Both the position numbers and the translations under genes were made by a program. From sequence record ON528739: DNA of 64,000 nucleotides. One strand, written 5' to 3'. The stretch's first letter is position 1; each line of letters begins with the position of its first letter. The notes under the pieces were generated by a model. It saw nothing but the letters and a program-made list of their open reading frames with translations. It was not told where the DNA came from and did not search any database. Positions 40,204 through 50,448 of the stretch are shown here, one piece after another. The DNA is from Shigella phage ESh29.

Positions 40204-40211
40204 TATAAATA
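40204..40211 (+). promoter_or_regulatory. Late promoter TATAAATA upstream of gene 34
   Basis: Exact TATAAATA 34 nt upstream of the gp34 ATG. Confidence 0.6.
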
Positions 40212-40245: not shown

Positions 40246-43200
40246 ATGGCCGAGATTAAAAGAAAGTTCAGAGCAGAAGATGGTCTGGACGCAGGTGGCG
40301 ATAAAATAATCAACGTAGCTTTAGCTGATCGTACCGTAGGAACTGACGGTGTTAACGTTGATTACTTAATTCAAGAAAACACAGTTCAACAATATGATCC
40401 AACTCGTGGATATTTAAAAGATTTTGTAATCATTTATAATAATCATTTTTGGGCAGCAACGGATAATATTCCAAAACCTGCTGGAAGTTTTAATAGAATT
40501 CGTTGGAAAGAATTACGTACTGATGCTGTATATACGACCGTATCATCTGGACCATATCAATTAAAATCCGGAGAAGCAATTTCAGTAGATACATCAGTTG
40601 GTAATGACATTGAGTTTACTTTACCACCTTCTCCGCTCGATGGAGAAACAGTAATAATTCAAGATATCGGTGGAAAACCTGGTATAAATCAGGTTAAAAT
40701 AAGTTCTTCAAATCAGAGCATTGTTAATTTTAGAGGTGAACAAGTACGTTCAGTTTTAATGACTCATCCAAAGTCACAGATGATATTCATTTTTAATAAT
40801 CGTTTGTGGCAAATGTATGTTGCTGATTATAGCAGAGAAGCTGCAATTGTTACTCCATCGACTGCATATCAAGCACAATCTAATGATTTTATCGTGCGTA
40901 GATTTACTTCCGCAGCGCCGATTAATATTAAACTTCCGAGATTTGCTAATCATGGCGATATTATTAATTTCGTTGATTTAGATAAATTAAATCCACTTTA
41001 TCATACAATTGTCACGACATATGATGAAACAACTTCAGTACAAGAAGTTGGAACTCATTCCATTGAAGGCCGTACATCGATTGACGGTTTCTTGATGTTT
41101 GATGATAGTGAAAAATTATGGAGATTGTTTGACGGGGATAGTAAAGCACGTTTACGCATTATAACGACTAATTCAAACATTCGTCCAAATGAAGAAGTTA
41201 TGGTATTTGGTGCGAATAACGGAACAGCCCAAACAATTGAGCTTCAGCTTCCAACTGATATTTCTGTTGGTGATACTGTTAAAATTTCCATGAATTACAT
41301 GAGAAAAGGACAAACAGTTAAAATCAAAGCTGCCGGTGAAGATAAAATTGCTTCTTCAGTTCAATTGCTGCAATTCCCAAAACGTTCAGAATATCCGCTT
41401 GAAGCTGAGTGGGTTACAGTTCAAGAATTAGTTTTTAATGGTGAAACTAATTATGTACCAGTTTTGCAACTTGCTTATATAGAAGATTCTGATGGAAAAT
41501 ACTGGGTTGTACAGCAAAACGTTCCAACAGTTGAAAGAGTCGATTCTTTAAATAATTCTACTAGAGCAAGATTAGGCGTAATTGCTTTAGCTACACAAGC
41601 TCAAGCAAATGCTGATTTAGAAAATTCTCCGCAAAAAGAATTGGCAATTACTCCAGAAACGTTAGCTAATCGTACTGCTACTGAAACCCGCAGAGGTATT
41701 GCAAGAATAGCAACTACTGCTCAAGTAAATCAGAACACCACATTCTCTTTTGCAGATGACCTTATCATCACTCCTAAAAAGCTGAATGAAAGAACTGCTA
41801 CAGAAACTCGTAGAGGTGTTGCTGAAATTGCTACGCAGCAGGAAACTAATACAGGTACTGATGATACTACAATCATCACTCCTAAAAAGCTTCAAGCTCG
41901 TCAAGGTTCCGAATCATTATCTGGTATTGTAACTTTTGTATCTACCGCAGGAGCTACTCCAGCTTCTAGTCGTGAATTAAATGGTACGAATGTTTATAAT
42001 AAAAACACTAATAATTTAGTTGTTTCACCTAAAGCTTTGGATCAGTATAAAGCTACTCCAACGCAACAAGGCGCAGTAATTTTAGCAGTTGAAAGTGAAG
42101 TAATTGCTGGACAAAGCCAAGAAGGATGGGCAAATGCGGTTGTAACGCCAGAAACGTTACATAAAAAGACATCAACTGATGCAAGAATTGGTTTAATTGA
42201 AATTGCTACACAAAGTGAAGTTAATACAGGAACTGACTATACTCGTGCAGTCACTCCTAAAACTTTAAATGACCGTAGAGCAACTGAAAGTTTAAGTGGT
42301 ATAGCTGAAATTGCTACGCAAGTTGAATTCGACGCAGGCGTCGACGATACTCGTATCTCTACACCATTAAAAATTAAAACCAGATTTAATAGTACTGATC
42401 GTACTTCTGTTGTTACTCTATCTGGATTAGTTGAATCAGGAACTCTCTGGGACCATTATACCCTTAATATTCTTGAAGCAAATGAGACACAGCGTGGTAC
42501 ACTTCGTGTAGCTACACAAGTTGAAGCTGCTGCAGGAACATTAGATAATGTTTTAATAACTCCTAAAAAGCTTTTAGGTACTAAATCTACCGAATCGCAA
42601 GAAGGTGTTATTAAAGTTGCAACTCAGTCTGAAACTGTGACTGGAACGTCAGCAAATACTGCTGTATCTCCAAAAAATTTAAAATGGATTGTGCAGAGTG
42701 AACCTACTTGGGCAGCAACTACTGCGATAAGGGGCTTTGTTAAAACTTCTTCTGGTTCATTAACGTTTGTTGGTAATGATACGGTAGGTTCAACACAGCC
42801 ATTAGAATCATATGAGAAAAATAGTTATGCAGTATCACCATATGAATTAAATCGCGTATTAGCAAATTATTTGCCATTAAAAGCAAAAGCTGTAGATAGT
42901 AATTTATTAGATGGTCTAGATTCGCTCCAGTTCATTCGTAGGGATATTGCGCAGACGGTTAATGGTTCACTAACCTTAACGCAACAAACGAATCTGAGTG
43001 CCCCTCTTGTATCATCTAGTACTGCTACGTTTGGTGGATCAGTTTCGGCAAATAGTACATTAACTATTTCTAATACTGGAACGGCAACTCGTCTGATTTT
43101 TGAAAAAGGACCTCAAACTGGAACAAACCCGGCTCAAACGATGACTGTCAGAGTGTGGGGAAATCAATTTAGTGGGGAATCAGACACAACACGTTCTACA

Positions 43201-44115
43201 GTATTTGAAGTTAGTGATGAAACGTCTAGTCATTTTTATTCTCAGCGTAATAAAGCTGGAAATATAACATTTAATATCAACGGTACAGTAACACCGATAA
43301 ATGTTAATGCTTCAGGAACATTGAATGCAAATGGTGCTGCAACATTTGGTAATTCAGTCACTGCAACTGGTGAAATTATTTCTCGAAGCGCAAATGCTTT
43401 CCGTGCTATTAACGGAAATTATGGTTTCATTGTTCGCAATGATGGATCAGTAACGAATTTTATGCTTACTGCATCGGGTGATCAGACTGGTGGATTTAAT
43501 GGATTACGTCCTTTAGCTATTAATAATGCATCTGGTCAAGTAACGATTGGTGAAAGCTTAATAATTGCCAAAGGCGCTACTATAAATTCAGGTGGTTTGA
43601 CTGTTAACTCGAGAATTCGTTCTCAGGGCACTAAAACATCTGATTTATATACCCGCGCACCAACATCTGATACTGTAGGATTCTGGTCAATTGATATTAA
43701 CGATTCAGCCACTTATAATCAATTCCCTGGTTATTTTAAAATGGTTGAAAAAACTAATGAAGTGACTGGACTTCCATACTTAGAACGTGGTGAAGAAGTT
43801 AAATCTCCTGGTACATTGACTCAGTTTGGTAACACACTTGATTCACTTTACCAAGATTGGATTACTTATCCAACGACCCCAGAAGCACGTACCACTCGCT
43901 GGACGCGTACATGGCAGAAAACTAAAAATTCTTGGTCAAGTTTTGTTCAGGTATTTGATGGAGGTAACCCTCCTCAACCTTCGGATATAGGAGCAATCCC
44001 ATCTGATAATGGAATAATAGGTAATCTTACTATTCGTGATTTCTTACGAATTGGTAATGTTCGCATTATTCCTGACCCAGTGAATAAAACTGTTAAATTT
44101 GAATGGGTTGAATAA
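40246..44115 (+). CDS. 34: Long tail fibre proximal subunit gp34, 1289 aa
   Basis: Length and position first in the 34-35-36-37-38 cassette; repetitive beta-rich sequence. Confidence 0.9.
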   Translation: MAEIKRKFRAEDGLDAGGDKIINVALADRTVGTDGVNVDYLIQENTVQQYDPTRGYLKDFVIIYNNHFWAATDNIPKPAGSFNRIRWKELRTDAVYTTVSSGPYQLKSGEAISVDTSVGNDIEFTLPPSPLDGETVIIQDIGGKPGINQVKISSSNQSIVNFRGEQVRSVLMTHPKSQMIFIFNNRLWQMYVADYSREAAIVTPSTAYQAQSNDFIVRRFTSAAPINIKLPRFANHGDIINFVDLDKLNPLYHTIVTTYDETTSVQEVGTHSIEGRTSIDGFLMFDDSEKLWRLFDGDSKARLRIITTNSNIRPNEEVMVFGANNGTAQTIELQLPTDISVGDTVKISMNYMRKGQTVKIKAAGEDKIASSVQLLQFPKRSEYPLEAEWVTVQELVFNGETNYVPVLQLAYIEDSDGKYWVVQQNVPTVERVDSLNNSTRARLGVIALATQAQANADLENSPQKELAITPETLANRTATETRRGIARIATTAQVNQNTTFSFADDLIITPKKLNERTATETRRGVAEIATQQETNTGTDDTTIITPKKLQARQGSESLSGIVTFVSTAGATPASSRELNGTNVYNKNTNNLVVSPKALDQYKATPTQQGAVILAVESEVIAGQSQEGWANAVVTPETLHKKTSTDARIGLIEIATQSEVNTGTDYTRAVTPKTLNDRRATESLSGIAEIATQVEFDAGVDDTRISTPLKIKTRFNSTDRTSVVTLSGLVESGTLWDHYTLNILEANETQRGTLRVATQVEAAAGTLDNVLITPKKLLGTKSTESQEGVIKVATQSETVTGTSANTAVSPKNLKWIVQSEPTWAATTAIRGFVKTSSGSLTFVGNDTVGSTQPLESYEKNSYAVSPYELNRVLANYLPLKAKAVDSNLLDGLDSLQFIRRDIAQTVNGSLTLTQQTNLSAPLVSSSTATFGGSVSANSTLTISNTGTATRLIFEKGPQTGTNPAQTMTVRVWGNQFSGESDTTRSTVFEVSDETSSHFYSQRNKAGNITFNINGTVTPINVNASGTLNANGAATFGNSVTATGEIISRSANAFRAINGNYGFIVRNDGSVTNFMLTASGDQTGGFNGLRPLAINNASGQVTIGESLIIAKGATINSGGLTVNSRIRSQGTKTSDLYTRAPTSDTVGFWSIDINDSATYNQFPGYFKMVEKTNEVTGLPYLERGEEVKSPGTLTQFGNTLDSLYQDWITYPTTPEARTTRWTRTWQKTKNSWSSFVQVFDGGNPPQPSDIGAIPSDNGIIGNLTIRDFLRIGNVRIIPDPVNKTVKFEWVE

Positions 44116-44123
44116 GAGGTATT

Positions 44124-45239
44124 ATGGAAAAATTTATGGCAGAGTTTGGACAAGGATATGTCCAAACGCCATTTTTATCGGAAAGCAATTCAGTAAGATA
44201 TAAAATAAGCATAGCGGGTTCTTGCCCGCTTTCTACAGCAGGACCATATGTTAAATTTCAGGATAATCCCGTTGGAAATCAAACATTTAGTGCAGGTCTT
44301 CATTTAAGAGTTTTTGACCCTTCTACAGGAGCATTAGTTGATAGTAAGTCATATGCTTTTTCTGCTTCAAACAATACAACATCTACCGCTTTTGTCAGTT
44401 TCATGAATTCTTTGTCAAACAATAGACTTGTTGCTATATTAACTAGCGGAAAGGTTAATTTTCCTCCTGAAGTGGTATCTTGGTTAAGGGGAGCAGGAAC
44501 TTCAGTTTTTCCATCAGATTCAGTATTGTCAAGATTTGACGTGTCATATGCTGCTTTTTACACTTCTTCTAAAAGAGCTATCGCATTAGAGCATGTTAAA
44601 CTAAGTAATAAAAAAAGCACAGATGATTATCAAACTATTTTAGATGTTGTATTTGATAGTTTAGAAGACGTCGGAGCTACAGGATTTCCTAAAAGAACAT
44701 ACGAAAGCGTTGAGCAATTTATGTCTGCGGTTGGTGGAATTAATAACGAAATTGCGCGATTGCCAACTTCAGCTGCTATAAGTAAACTTTCTGACTACAA
44801 TTTAATTCCTGGTGATGTTCTTTATCTTAAAGCACAACTATATGCTGATGCTGATTTACTTGATCTTGGAACTACAAATATATCTATTCGTTTTTATGAT
44901 GCATCAAATGGATATATTTCCTCGACCCAAGCTGAGTTTACTGGGCAAGCTGGGTCTTGGGAATTAAAAGAAGATTATGTAGTTGTTCCTGAAAATGCAG
45001 TAGGATTTACGATATATGCACAAAGAACTGCTCAAGCAGGTCAAGGCGGAATGAGGAATTTAAGCTTTTCTGAAGTATCAAGAAATGGCGGCATTTCAAA
45101 ACCTGCCGAATTTGGCGTCAACGGTATTCGCGTTAATTATGTCTGTGAATCGGCTTCACCTCCAGATATAATGGTACTTCCTACACAAGCCTCTTCTAAA
45201 ACTGGCAAAGTGTTTGGGCAAGAATTTAGAGAAGTTTAA
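44124..45239 (+). CDS. 35: Long tail fibre hinge protein gp35, 371 aa
   Basis: Size and synteny. Confidence 0.85.
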   Translation: MEKFMAEFGQGYVQTPFLSESNSVRYKISIAGSCPLSTAGPYVKFQDNPVGNQTFSAGLHLRVFDPSTGALVDSKSYAFSASNNTTSTAFVSFMNSLSNNRLVAILTSGKVNFPPEVVSWLRGAGTSVFPSDSVLSRFDVSYAAFYTSSKRAIALEHVKLSNKKSTDDYQTILDVVFDSLEDVGATGFPKRTYESVEQFMSAVGGINNEIARLPTSAAISKLSDYNLIPGDVLYLKAQLYADADLLDLGTTNISIRFYDASNGYISSTQAEFTGQAGSWELKEDYVVVPENAVGFTIYAQRTAQAGQGGMRNLSFSEVSRNGGISKPAEFGVNGIRVNYVCESASPPDIMVLPTQASSKTGKVFGQEFREV

Positions 45240-45270: not shown

Positions 45271-45278
45271 TATAAATA
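45271..45278 (+). promoter_or_regulatory. Late promoter TATAAATA upstream of gene 36
   Basis: Exact TATAAATA 23 nt upstream of the gp36 ATG. Confidence 0.6.
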
Positions 45279-45301: not shown

Positions 45302-45952
45302 ATGGCTGATTTAAAAGTAGGTTCAACTGTAGGTGGATCTGTCATTTGGCATCAAGGAAATTTTCCATTGAATTCAGCCGGTGACGATGTACTCTACAAA
45401 TCATTTAAAATATATTCAGAATATAATAAACCACAGGCAGCTGATAACGATTTCGTTTCTAAAGCTAATGGTGGTACTTACACCGGTCCAATTACTATTA
45501 ATTACGGGGTAAATAGTTATCTTCAATTAAGTAATAATGAAACCCCCATTCGAATTCGTTCTGGTGGCGGTACCGGTAATACTCTTGTAGTTGGCGGCTC
45601 TTCCGGCGGTATTAGTTTTAGACCTGCAGGTAGTGAAATCACTACTGGACAAATTACTATTACGCCAGAAGGTTTGACAACATTTACCAGGGCTGTAACG
45701 GCTCCATCGGTAACTGTTACATCTACTCCTTCCGCAGCATCTGATGTTACTCGCAAAGATTATGTTGATGGAGCAATAAATACTGTTACAGCAAATGCAA
45801 ACTCTAGGGTATTACGCTCTGGAGACACTATGACAGGAAATTTAACTGCGCCAAACCTTTTTTCACAGAATCCTGCATCTCAACCTTCACACGTTCCACG
45901 ATTTGACCAAATCGTAATTAAGGATTCTGTTCAAGATTTCGGCTATTATTAA
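45302..45952 (+). CDS. 36: Long tail fibre distal connector gp36, 216 aa
   Basis: Size and synteny. Confidence 0.85.
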
Positions 45953-45960
45953 GAGGACTT

Positions 45961-48927
45961 ATGGCTACTTTAAAACAAATACAATTTAAAAGAAGCAAAA
46001 CTGCAGGTCAACGTCCTGCTGCTTCAGTATTAGCCGAAGGTGAATTGGCTATAAACTTAAAAGATAAAACAATTTTCACAAAAGATGACTCAGGTAGTGT
46101 TATAGAATTAGGTTTAAAATATGGAGGAACAATTGATGGTTCTTTAACTGTTAATGGAAGCATAATTGGAAATTTAACAGGTAACGCTGCAACCGCAACG
46201 AAATTGCAAACACCTAGGAAAATTAATGGTATATCTTTTGATGGGTCAAAGGACATTACCCTAACTCCATCTGACATAAATGTCAATAGCACAACATTTA
46301 TAAAAAATAATGGCGAATTACCTACTAATGCTAATTTAGATGAGTATGGGCCCATTGAAGAATATCTTGGTGTTTGGTCGAAATCTACTTCAACAAATGC
46401 GCAACCAGCAAATAAATTTCCAGAAGAAAATGCCGTAGGTGTACTAGAAGTATTTGTTGCCGGCCAATTTGCTGGCACTCAGCGTTATACTGTAAGATCT
46501 GGTAACGTCTATATTCGTTCCTTATCTGCTAAATGGAATGGCGTCGATGGTCCATGGGGTCCGTGGCGCAATATTCAAACTGGCACACGTCCACTATCAA
46601 CTACGCTAGACTTGAATACTTTGGGTGATGCTTCTCATTTTGGGTTATGGCGAAATAGTTCAAGTGCCATTGCAACATTTTCTCGAAATTACCCAGAAGA
46701 AGGTGGTCTCGCGCAAGGTCTTTTAGAAATTTATGAAGGCGGTAACTATTCTCGTACACAACGTTATACTACCCGAATGGGTGTTGTATATGTTCGTTGT
46801 CTTGCTGGCGCATGGGATCCAGAAGCTCCGAATTGGGGAGAGTGGCAACAAGTAGGTATGGTTACTCCCAGCACATTCTATGACGGAGATCTGAATGATT
46901 TTAAAACTCCTGGGTTATATAATATTTTAGGCACTGATGCCGTTATTAACTGTCCTACCGGTGAAGGTTTGCCGACTGTTATTGTTGGTTTGCTGGAAGT
47001 TAAACAGCGTGCTTCTGGCGGTGCTATTTTCCAAAAATTTACTACTGCCGGAACGGGTGCAACTACTCGCGATCGTATTTTTGAGCGTGCATATACTGGT
47101 GGTGTGTGGGGTGCATGGAACGAAGTATATACATCTTATTCTTTGCCAATTACTTTGGGTATGGGTGGTATTAAAACTCAATTAGCGGAGCTAGATTGGC
47201 AAACATTTGATTTTGTTCCTGGTAGTATGTTTAGCGTTCCTTTGAACAAAATAAAGAACATGCCAGCAAATATGAATTGGGGTACGATTGACGGAAACTT
47301 GGTTATGTTTTCTGTCGGTCCTAGCGAACACACCAGCACAGGACGTACTGTTCAGGTTTGGCGTGGTACTGTATCCCAGACAAACTACCGTTATTTTGTC
47401 GTTCGTGTGTTCGGTAATTCTGGAAATAGAACTTGCACAGTTCGCCGTGTTGTTCTTGAAGACGGATCACATACTTGGACTGCTCAACAAGATTTTAATG
47501 GTGCTGTTAGCTTTGGTAGTTCAACAACGTTTAAATCAACTACAACATTTAATACAGAAGTTAAATTTCGCTCATTGAATGCATTCCGTATGTATGGCGG
47601 AAAATTTGGTACATTTTTACGTAATGATGGAGAGAGTCTTTATATTCTTTCCACCGACGAAGATGATCAAGATGGAAACTTTAATACAAATAGACCTTTC
47701 CGTTATGAATTAAGAACTGGTGATGTTACTTTGGGTGGTGTTAGTGGTGCTAACGTTTTAAAACTAAAACGTGATTCTCTCACCGCATTTTTTGGCGGTG
47801 ATATTAATATGAAAGGCTTGCTGACTTTTGACGCCGGACGTTTAGGATCACGAGATTATTTTAAATTTAACCATTGGGGTGATAGTAATAATGCTCGTGA
47901 TAACATCATCCAGTTAGAAGATAGCAAAGGCGTTCATTTTTCCACTGAACGTACTTTAGCGACTGGTGCAATTAAGACTAAATTTTTTGGTGAAGTTGAA
48001 TCCGATGGACGATTGATTATTAAACGTCCGGGTGATTCTATTGTATTATCAGCACCTGCTAGTAATTCTTTGCATATTCGTGGTGACGTAGACGGGACTG
48101 GTAACTGGTATATTGGTAAGGGTGGTGATGATAATGGATTAGCGTTCTATAGTTATGCTACTAATGCTGGTGTATACATTACAAACGCAGGAGATATCTC
48201 GCTAAGTCCAAAGGGTGCCGAAATGGCTCAGGTCAATAACGTTCGATTATATGTTCATGGTGAACGTTGGACCGCTAGTCAACCAGGTGATTGGGGTAGT
48301 CAGTGGCAAGTGGAAGCGCCAATATTCGTCGATCATGGTTATGTTTCACAGGATTGTTATTATCCAATTATTAAAGGAAGAAGTGTAATCACCAATCAAG
48401 GGTTTGTAACTGCCGTCGATCTTGGTATTCGTCGTGTCCCTGACAATTGGGGGCAAGCAATTATTCGTGTTGGATCTGCAGAGGCTTCACCAGCGGCTGG
48501 ACACCCTAACGCGGTATTTGAATTTCATTACGACGGTACTTTCTATTCTCCTGGTAATGGTAATTTTAACGATGTGTATATTCGTTCCGATGGTCGACTT
48601 AAGATCAATAAAGAAGAGTTAGAAAACGGAGCACTTGAAAAAGTATGCCGACTGAAAGTTTATACATACGATAAGGTTAAGTCTATTAAAGATCGTAGTG
48701 TTATTAAACGTGAAGTTGGTATTATTGCTCAGGATCTTGAAAAAGAATTATCAGAAGCTGTATCTAAAGTTGAAGTTGATGGATCTGATGTTCTGACAAT
48801 TTCTAACTCCGCTGTGAATGCTCTTTTAATTAAGGCCATTCAGGAAATGAGCGAAGAAATTAAAGAATTGAAAACGCCTTTCTTCACTAAAATTGCTCGC
48901 AAAATTGGTAAATACTTTAAATTCTAA
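45961..48927 (+). CDS. 37: Long tail fibre distal subunit gp37, 988 aa
   Basis: Size and synteny; followed by a glycine-rich gp38. Confidence 0.9.
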
Positions 48928-48959
48928 CAACAAGGGGCATTGCCCCTTTGGAGAAAATT

Positions 48960-49760
48960 ATGGCAGTAGTTGGTGTTCCTGGTTGGATTGGAAGTTCATC
49001 CGTAAATGAAACAGGACAACGATGGATGAGTCAAGCGGCTGGTCAATTAAGATTGGGTGTTCCTTGCTGGATGAGCCAATTCGCCGGACGCTCAAGAGAG
49101 ATTATTCATACCGTAACAGCAAACCATAACTTTAATGGTCAATGGTTCCGCGACCGTTGCTTTGAAGCTGGCGGTGCACCCATTGTATTCAATATTGTTG
49201 GTGATATCGTTTCTTATTCTAAAGATGTGCCACTTTTCTTTATGTATGGGGATACGCCTAATGAATATGTTGTTCTTAATATTCATGGTGGTGTTCATAT
49301 GTGGGGTCGTGGTGGTAATGGTGGATACACTCACTCAGGAGGCGACGGTAACGGTACACAAGGCGGTCATGTTATTCAAAATGATATCGGTGGACGGCTT
49401 CGTATTTGGAACTATGGTGTTATAGCTGCTGGCGGCGGCGGCGGCGGTGGTATTGCATATCGTCCACACTCAGGGGCAAACTGGCAAGATATCGGTGGCG
49501 GTGGTGGTCGACCTTTCGGTGGTGCTGGCGGTGGCGGTTATTCCGGTGGTGCTGCTTCGTATGAAGGTCCGGGTGGTGGTTATGACTATGGTAACGCACA
49601 CTCCGGCGCTGGTGGTAATGCTGGTGCTGCTGGTCAGAATGCATGGTCTGACGGCGGTAAAGTTCTTAAAGTTGGTGTTGGTGGTGCGTCTGGTCATGCA
49701 GTGTTTGGGTCTTCTCCAACTTGGGGTGCTGTTGGAACAATTTACGGACCAAGAGTATAA
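48960..49760 (+). CDS. 38: Tail fibre tip adhesin gp38 with glycine-rich motifs, 266 aa
   Basis: ATG at 48960 after GGAG (track ORF 48948 begins at TTG); several poly-Gly blocks separated by variable segments. Confidence 0.8.
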
Positions 49761-49791
49761 TTTTGAATAAATATCCTTAAAAGGAGGGTCT

Positions 49792-50448
49792 ATGGCAGCA
49801 CCTAGAATATCATTTTCGCCCTCTGGTATTCTGTTGGGTGTTCTAGATCGCTTGTTCAAAGATAATGCTACCGGGAAAGTTCTTGCTTCCCGGGTAGCTG
49901 TCGTAATTCTTTTGTTTATAATGGCGATTGTTTGGTATAGGGGAGATAGTTTCTTTGAGTACTATAAGCAATCAAAGTATGAAACATACAGCGAAATTAT
50001 TGAAAAGGAAAGAAATGCACGCTTTGAATCTGTCGCCCTGGAACAACTCCAGATAGTTCATATATCATCTGAGGCAGACTTTAGTGCGGTGTATTCTTTC
50101 CGCCCTAAAAACTTAAACTATTTTGTTGATATTATAGCATATGAAGGAAAATTACCTTCAACAATAAGTGAAAAATCACTTGGAGGATATCCTGTTGATA
50201 AAACTATGGATGAATATGCAGTTCATTTAAATGGACGTCATTATTATTCCGACTCAAAATTTGCTTTTTTACCAACTAAAAAGCCTACTCCCGAAATAAA
50301 TTACATGTACAGTTGTCCATATTTCAATTTGGATAATATCTATGCTGGAACAATAACCATGTACTGGTATAGAAATGATCATATAAGTAATGACCGCCTT
50401 GAATCAATATGTTCTCAGGCGGCCAGAATATTAGGAAGGGCTAAATAA
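49792..50448 (+). CDS. t: Holin T, 218 aa
   Basis: Length, single N-terminal TM segment, position after gene 38. Confidence 0.9.
   Translation: MAAPRISFSPSGILLGVLDRLFKDNATGKVLASRVAVVILLFIMAIVWYRGDSFFEYYKQSKYETYSEIIEKERNARFESVALEQLQIVHISSEADFSAVYSFRPKNLNYFVDIIAYEGKLPSTISEKSLGGYPVDKTMDEYAVHLNGRHYYSDSKFAFLPTKKPTPEINYMYSCPYFNLDNIYAGTITMYWYRNDHISNDRLESICSQAARILGRAK

Follow-up and report, generated by a model that had tools for sequence, protein, structure and literature searches.

The gene that follows gene 37 in the long-tail-fibre locus of Shigella phage ESh29 raises the question whether it encodes a receptor-recognising adhesin or only an assembly chaperone, and what its runs of glycine codons contribute to its variation. 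The locus was analysed within a window of 64,000 nucleotides of DNA from this phage (ON528739), and all coordinates given here are window positions. The reading frame of gp38 runs on the + strand from an ATG at 48960 to a TAA at 49758-49760 and encodes 266 residues plus the stop. The end of gp37 lies at 48927, thereby confirming the 266-aa protein after gp37 that was described in an earlier sequence-only reading of this DNA. The ORF finder had given a longer version starting at an in-frame TTG (48948). This TTG is not the start of gp38, because a Shine-Dalgarno GGAG read in the sequence (48950-48953, +) lies 6 nt 5' of the ATG and the CDS in the Ox2 GenBank record (X05675) starts at the same ATG.

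The gene order 34-35-36-37-38-t is that of the canonical T-even long-tail-fibre cluster. gp34 (40246-44115), gp35 (44124-45239) and gp36 (45302-45952) are followed by gene 37 (45961-48927, +), and the holin gene t (49792-50448, +; Pfam Phage_holin_T, 1.6e-116) completes the canonical arrangement 37-38-t; the neighbours of the cluster also include an asiA-like gene encoded on the other strand. The 12-kb locus showed no more than 96% identity to any phage record in the collection, and all of its good matches were Tequatrovirus. Over aa 58-112, gp35 (44124-45239) also matched the Pfam family ILEI with an E of 7e-8, which exceeds the gathering score; ILEI is the interleukin-like EMT inducer, FAM3/PANDER-like, a surprising assignment for the hinge protein of a tail fibre.

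The product of gene 37 is the distal long-tail-fibre subunit of 988 aa (PHROG 1699, 5.8e-222), the trimeric partner capped by gp38, and it showed Pfam matches to Gp34_trimer and Peptidase_S74. The Peptidase_S74 match (aa 876-934) indicated a predicted C-terminal intramolecular chaperone of 113 aa (aa 876-988; 48586-48924, +). The motif DVYIR^SDGRLKI is present in gp37, with SDGRLK beginning at aa 876, and an identical motif is aligned to the autocleavage site of S16 in PMC7917993. Autocleavage is thus predicted between R875 and S876, releasing 113 residues as in S16.

The T4 late-promoter motif TATAAATA was found on the + strand at 40204-40211 and 45271-45278, just 5' of genes 34 and 36, a placement that fits late co-transcription of genes 36-37-38. 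This reading is only suggestive, because the motif occurs 12 times across the window, which is not above chance. A GC-rich intergenic hairpin (AAGGGGC-ATT-GCCCCTT; 48932-48948, +), identified by folding, occupies the interval from the gp37 stop to the gp38 ribosome-binding site. Its stem is conserved and its loop variable in Ox2, T6, EcNP1 and G29, and an analogous hairpin is present in the same gap in T4. The folding z-score of the hairpin is only -1.4 and no T-run follows it; neither a terminator nor a sigma-70 promoter was found between genes 37 and 38. The Rfam and tRNA scans of the window gave nothing.

The composition of gp38 divides the protein into two parts, with 36% glycine in residues 115-266 versus 12% in residues 1-114. 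All four glycine blocks quoted in the sequence-only reading were located in the translation, namely GGGGGGG (aa 158-164, nt 49431-49451), a block of 18 residues (aa 180-197, nt 49497-49550), GPGGGYDYG (aa 203-211, nt 49566-49592) and GAGGNAGAAG (aa 216-225, nt 49605-49634). Runs of GGN codons lie at 49431-49451, 49494-49508, 49527-49538 and 49572-49580. The first of these consists of five GGC codons followed by two GGT codons, and Tandem Repeats Finder reported a perfect (GGC)5.7 at 49431-49447. The description of the DNA near 49430-49520 as made of GGC and GGT codons is therefore accurate, as such codons dominate 49431-49538. Reading frames in other phases within gene 38 (e.g. 49447-49770 on the + strand and 49470-49859 on the - strand) were set aside as by-products of the stop-poor, GGN-rich DNA.

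The family assignment of gp38 was consistent across profile, sequence and structure searches. Both Pfam adhesin models were matched above their gathering scores: GP38 (PF05268) gave 3.9e-66 and 223.5 bits (cut-off 25) across all 218 positions of the profile, and Gp38_N (PF21721) gave 3.2e-19 and 69.1 bits (cut-off 25) over aa 1-42. PHROG 2056, annotated as 'tail fiber protein; host specificity', was matched at 8e-108. Among PDB sequences, gp38 matched 9V85, the PP01 gp38 receptor-binding domain, at 2e-61 and 6F45_D, the S16 gp38, at 1.7e-43. An AF2 model of gp38 was built on 54 homologues with the Ox2 row left out and had a mean pLDDT of 87. The glycine-rich segments of the model were neither helix nor strand, yet their pLDDT was mostly above 90. 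The N-terminal 46 residues were of low confidence (pLDDT 49-74), which is expected because gp37 is absent from the model. Foldseek of this model against the PDB returned 9V85_C (E 5.5e-25, TM 0.87 by target, rmsd 2.6 A) and 6F45_D (E 1.9e-20, TM 0.74-0.80) and no other fold with E < 1. The predicted structure thus combines an attachment domain, a beta-helix and a polyglycine-II sandwich.

The modules of the protein were delimited using two separate alignments, one of 119 homologues and the other of 54 diverse homologues. The N-terminal attachment domain (aa 1-46; 48960-49097, +) was defined by Gp38_N and by conservation and carries the Trp prongs W9, W22 and W37. In the 119-homologue alignment W9 and W22 are invariant or nearly so and W37 is conserved; all three tryptophans are therefore retained, and in S16 three N-terminal Trp residues dock gp38 into gp37 (PMC6851490). 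The beta-helix domain follows (aa 47-115; 49098-49304, +), where the AF2 strands had pLDDT > 90 and the fold matched 9V85 and 6F45_D. The first glycine-rich motif, GRM1 (GRGGNGG, aa 116-122; 49305-49325, +), has G116, R117, G118, G119 and G121 invariant. It is followed by the hypervariable segment HVS1 (aa 123-134; 49326-49361, +), which has high column entropy and a length of 7-15 aa across the 119 homologues, and by a conserved beta-helix rung (aa 135-156; 49362-49427, +) in which G135, G136, I139, N141, G144, L147, I149, N151, G153 and I155 are invariant among the 54 homologues.

GRM2 (A-GGGGGGG, aa 157-164; 49428-49451, +) has a glycine run encoded by (GGC)5 GGT GGT. HVS2 (aa 165-178; 49452-49493, +) occurs in 64 distinct versions and has column entropies of 2.1-3.0 bits, with the exception of the single, mostly gapped column A173; close relatives differ here at 169, 172 and 174. 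GRM3 (GGGGGRPFG, aa 179-187; 49494-49520, +) is identical in 101 of the 119 homologues. HVS3 (aa 188-215; 49521-49604, +), assigned from entropy and length in the 119-homologue alignment, contains further semi-conserved glycine sub-motifs, which fits the count of ten PGII helices in the S16 crystal structure (PMC6851490), and varies among close relatives at 188, 191, 193, 212 and 214. GRM4 (GAGGNAGAAG, aa 216-225; 49605-49634, +) was recognised by its glycine conservation, G222 and G225 being invariant and G216, G218 and G219 nearly so among the 54 homologues; all five positions had near-zero entropy in the 119-sequence alignment. HVS4 (aa 226-240; 49635-49679, +), taken from the same alignment, shows a recurrent S230Y/H among close relatives. 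GRM5 (aa 241-250) and a conserved C-terminal strand (aa 251-266) complete the protein (49680-49757, +; alignment conservation).

The glycines invariant in the 54 diverse homologues were G116, G118, G119, G121, G159-162, G181-183, G187, G190, G205, G222 and G225, and such conservation of glycine columns is far from chance. Across the 119 sequences, GRM1 to GRM5 had near-zero entropy versus 2-3 bits and variable length for HVS1 to HVS4. This is the arrangement of five motifs and four hypervariable segments that Trojet et al. 2011 reported (PMC3157838). Two of the quoted blocks (aa 180-197 and GPGGGYDYG) cross the classical GRM/HVS borders. In the S16 structure the GRMs supply the polyglycine-II helices of a three-layer sandwich, from which the HVSs extend as distal loops (PMC6851490). 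The evidence for a role of the variable segments in host range comes from genetic and structural work in the literature (PMC3157838, PMC12032242, PMC6851490 and bioRxiv 10.64898/2026.04.02.716166).

The closest characterised relative is the gp38 of Ox2 (X05675, CAA29158), an OmpA-recognising adhesin studied by Henning's group. It has an equal length of 266 aa and is identical at 257 of 266 residues (97%) with no gaps, and it shares the GRM/HVS layout and the slot between gene 37 and t. Six of the nine substitutions fall in aa 52-83, where the window protein is T6-like; the others, from window to Ox2, are N174K in HVS2, G193R in HVS3 and A257V. The gp38 proteins of EcNP1 (QCQ57225.1) and vB_EcoM_Nami (QXV73326.1) are 100% identical to that of the window, and the exact protein was present on 20 contigs, deposited for EcNP1, Nami and others. 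The EcNP1 gene is 98.5% identical, with 11 nucleotide differences that are all silent, 5 of them in Gly codons. The T6 gp38 (AXN58309), which binds Tsx, is virtually identical over the N-terminal 121 residues and 100% identical in DNA over 49160-49280, but over the whole specificity domain (49322-49730) the two genes carry different alleles, with 32-73% nucleotide identity. PP01 gp38 (9V85) and the S16 tip (6F45) have the same three-domain fold with 58% and 42% identity, respectively; their HVS loops differ from those of the window protein and both bind OmpC.

Among database records, vB_EcoM_G5211 (MK327947; L017, 301-1100) was seen to have a 1-nt deletion in a GGG triplet (window 49055), resulting in a frameshift after residue 32 and two annotated ORFs; this frameshift is a sequencing error or marks a pseudogene. 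The record is classed as Krischvirus, yet its gp38 is Ox2-type and adjoins gp37. A near-identical gp38 gene (94% nt) was also found in a record named Pseudomonas phage PsgM02F, and a T6-like gp38 cluster under the source name 'Bacillus cereus'; both names are probably host mislabels or assembly contamination.

The likeness to both Ox2 and T6 was resolved by comparing the window at the sites where these two phages differ. All 22 informative sites in 49160-49247 were T6-type, and more than 200 informative sites in 49322-49748 were Ox2-type. Between them lies a 74-nt tract (49248-49321, +), identical in the window, Ox2 and T6, which codes for the last part of the beta-helix and for GRM1. The exchange must therefore have occurred within this interval, as the sequence is T6-type upstream and Ox2-type downstream. 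EcNP1 and G29 carry the same pattern, so the mosaic is a feature of the clade and not peculiar to the window phage. Natural and laboratory exchanges swap the whole specificity cassette through conserved flanks (PMC3157838), and the mosaic of the window fits such exchanges. Recombination at the conserved motifs had already been proposed by Tetart et al. 1998, as cited in PMC3157838 and PMC12032242. A fine-scale mosaic was also observed over 48170-49250, which covers the 3' end of gp37 and the 5' half of gp38, with alternating blocks of 100% identity within about 1 kb, namely to Ox2/EcNP1 at 48290-48380 and near 48500, to G29 at 48590-48770 and to T6 at 49160-49280.

The exchange of segments inside the specificity domain was assessed by a coarse typing of HVS alleles across 119 homologues. 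At this resolution the Ox2-type HVS1-4 set travels as a block in 44 sequences, and no four-gamete violation was detected between adjacent HVS types, while three were detected between the N-terminal type and HVS1. Shuffling of single HVSs between the internal GRMs was dismissed, there being no such violation between adjacent types. For the same reason the typing does not mark the internal GGN runs (49430-49520) as places where natural crossovers are frequent, although a recent engineering study did recover an exchange from HVS2 onwards. The proposal that the GGN runs favour recombination was thus sustained for one crossover interval that includes GRM1, but not for the HVS sets, which move as a block.

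The first alternative to be weighed against the adhesin is that gp38 acts only as an assembly chaperone of the T4 type that is absent from virions, with the receptor-binding site on gp37. The window gene occupies the slot of T4 gene 38 and shares its name with the T4 chaperone (NP_049864), and some GenBank records label such genes 'distal long tail fiber assembly catalyst'. However, T4 gp38, a protein of 183 aa that is not a virion component, is unrelated in sequence, and BLASTP against it gave nothing, the best E being 3.5 over 7 residues. The window protein belongs to the adhesin Pfam families and fits the adhesin crystal structures. Its partner gp37 is strongly similar to T4 gp37 only across the first 66 aa and, instead of the T4-type C-terminal half, carries its own intramolecular chaperone (Peptidase_S74). 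The chaperone identity, which the sequence-only reading had named as the outcome opposed to its own, was dropped because of the lack of similarity to T4 gp38; sequence and fold effectively refute it and make it exceedingly improbable. The T2-type receptor-recognising adhesin, in turn, was borne out by both Pfam models, the solved gp38 structures, the predicted fold and the 97% identity to Ox2. The protein shows every defining feature of the T2/Ox2-type adhesin family that can be examined in sequence and no departure from the family. The region 48960-49760 is accordingly taken as the Tequatrovirus gene 38, encoding an Ox2-type monomeric adhesin that caps the gp37 trimer, with a probability of roughly 0.93 for identity and mechanism together, and from this we infer its presence in the virion.

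If gp38 is such an adhesin, its receptor may be OmpA or another surface component. Because the specificity domain is Ox2-type, the receptor is most likely OmpA, Ox2 being a classical OmpA phage that binds OmpA loops (PMC12032242). High identity to Ox2 is no guarantee of the same receptor, since single gp38 substitutions can shift it; in Ox2 gp38 they are reported to move it from OmpA to other targets (Drexler 1989/1991, as cited in PMC12892980), and Ox2 is reported to need more than one host factor (Trojet et al.). The C-terminal domain has three residues unlike those of Ox2 (N174 versus K, G193 versus R, A257 versus V), two of them in HVS2 and HVS3, and these could accordingly favour OmpC, OmpX-like proteins or LPS. 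At positions 174 and 193, however, the window carries the consensus of the Ox2 clade, that is the residue present in most of ten distinct Ox2-type C-domains, and it is Ox2 itself that departs from the others. FL08 and AV119, which are experimentally OmpA-dependent, have the same HVS type with nearly identical HVS2-4 and share N174 and G193 with the window; the HVS1-4 alleles are thus common to OmpA-dependent adhesins. A search of the available literature for the named Ox2 host-range mutants Ox2h5, h10, h12 and h20 found nothing. Judged from these allelic likenesses, OmpA is the probable receptor, and a receptor other than OmpA appears rather unlikely.

The sequence-only reading had also held that the GGN runs are prone to slippage, and this idea can be taken in a stronger sense, in which the runs form a functional hypermutable, contingency-like tract where slippage alters the number of glycines and hence the host range. 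The perfect (GGC)5 run in GRM2 is in favour of it, but this uninterrupted run was found only in the window, and the 41 related phage records with an Ox2-type GRM2-HVS2 segment mix GGC and GGT codons and so break it. When these 41 records were compared for length, the segment was unchanged in 40. The one exception is Yersinia phage PYps5T (MT828552; L016, 301-1104), isolated on Yersinia pseudotuberculosis, which has exactly one extra GGT in GRM2, giving 8 glycines, with the insertion after window position 49433. This host cannot be attributed to the extra glycine, because three other residues also differ (R46K, S230Y and T260A). An extra glycine was also present beside G211 in HVS3 of the metagenomic relative P0002. 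Against these cases, none of the 119 family representatives had an insertion in GRM2, where gaps were confined to a small number of shortened sequences; no deletion of GRM2, GRM3 or GRM4 was recovered in T6 (PMC3157838), and the glycines form a tightly packed PGII lattice (PMC6851490).

The diversity at fourfold sites was then considered for the C-terminal domain of 21 distinct Ox2-type genes (the window and 20 relatives). The mean pi was 0.189 for Gly runs of at least three codons, 0.092 for other Gly codons and 0.058 for other fourfold sites. This 2-3 fold excess of silent C/T variation in the Gly runs (Mann-Whitney p = 0.0017; Fisher p = 0.017 for segregating sites) comes from a small sample without phylogenetic correction and is a hint only. 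GRM2 was a hot spot of this silent variation. The Hudson-Kaplan minimum was 23 events in 801 nt, with three successive incompatibilities between the adjacent codons 159-162. Such mutually incompatible neighbours suggest recurrent change, and since the events are spaced 3 nt apart, recurrent C/T mutation was considered more plausible than separate crossovers, which were rejected. The overall excess of silent variation could reflect recurrent mutation or short-patch conversion. A strictly functional contingency tract is very unlikely on this balance. Somewhat less so, though still quite unlikely, is the milder view that the GGC/GGT runs of GRM2, GRM3 and aa 190-193 are genuine hot spots through slipped mispairing, mostly toggling silently with an occasional gain or loss of glycine that contributes to host-range change; if true, an 8-glycine GRM2 as in PYps5T would shift the presentation of the HVS loops and contribute to such a change. 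The data hint rather at a glycine tract that is somewhat mutable in DNA, with surviving change nearly all silent and the glycine number strongly constrained, in keeping with the packing of the PGII lattice and with the unrecovered GRM deletions in T6. The claim of slippage was therefore upheld only as far as one natural +GGT variant in GRM2 and elevated silent variation are concerned, and not for the glycine number, which is fixed in 40 of the 41 relatives.

For the adhesin, a mechanism can be proposed by homology to S16, PP01, T2, T6 and Ox2. gp37 would trimerise with the aid of its own C-terminal intramolecular chaperone, which would then cleave itself off after R875 (DVYIR^SDGRLK) and bare a flat hydrophobic tip. 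The N-terminal domain of gp38 (aa 1-46; Trp 9, 22 and 37) would plug into this tip, while the beta-helix (aa 47-156) would bear two long excursions whose glycine-rich motifs are expected to pack as polyglycine-II helices in a three-layer sandwich. This sandwich would display the hypervariable segments as distal loops that bind the outer-membrane protein. The glycine runs would thus be structural, with their length held by selection, and their DNA may serve as conserved islands for homologous exchange with other gp38 alleles, in which silent C/T changes recur.

The finding is correct but ordinary, because the identical protein is already in GenBank. The family, the GRM/HVS design, the structure, the receptor logic and the recombination idea were all published between 1987 and 2026, so that the biology is already known and not new, and the checks suggested earlier, by alignment with T2, T6, K3 and Ox2 and by host-range mutants, are largely in the literature already. 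Two small additions are hinted at, namely the concentration of silent variation in runs of Gly codons and one natural one-codon expansion of GRM2. The recognition of an Ox2-type allele permits the receptor, here OmpA, to be predicted from sequence alone. This matters because host range in T2-type phages is determined mainly by gp38, which is also a target in the engineering of therapeutic phages.
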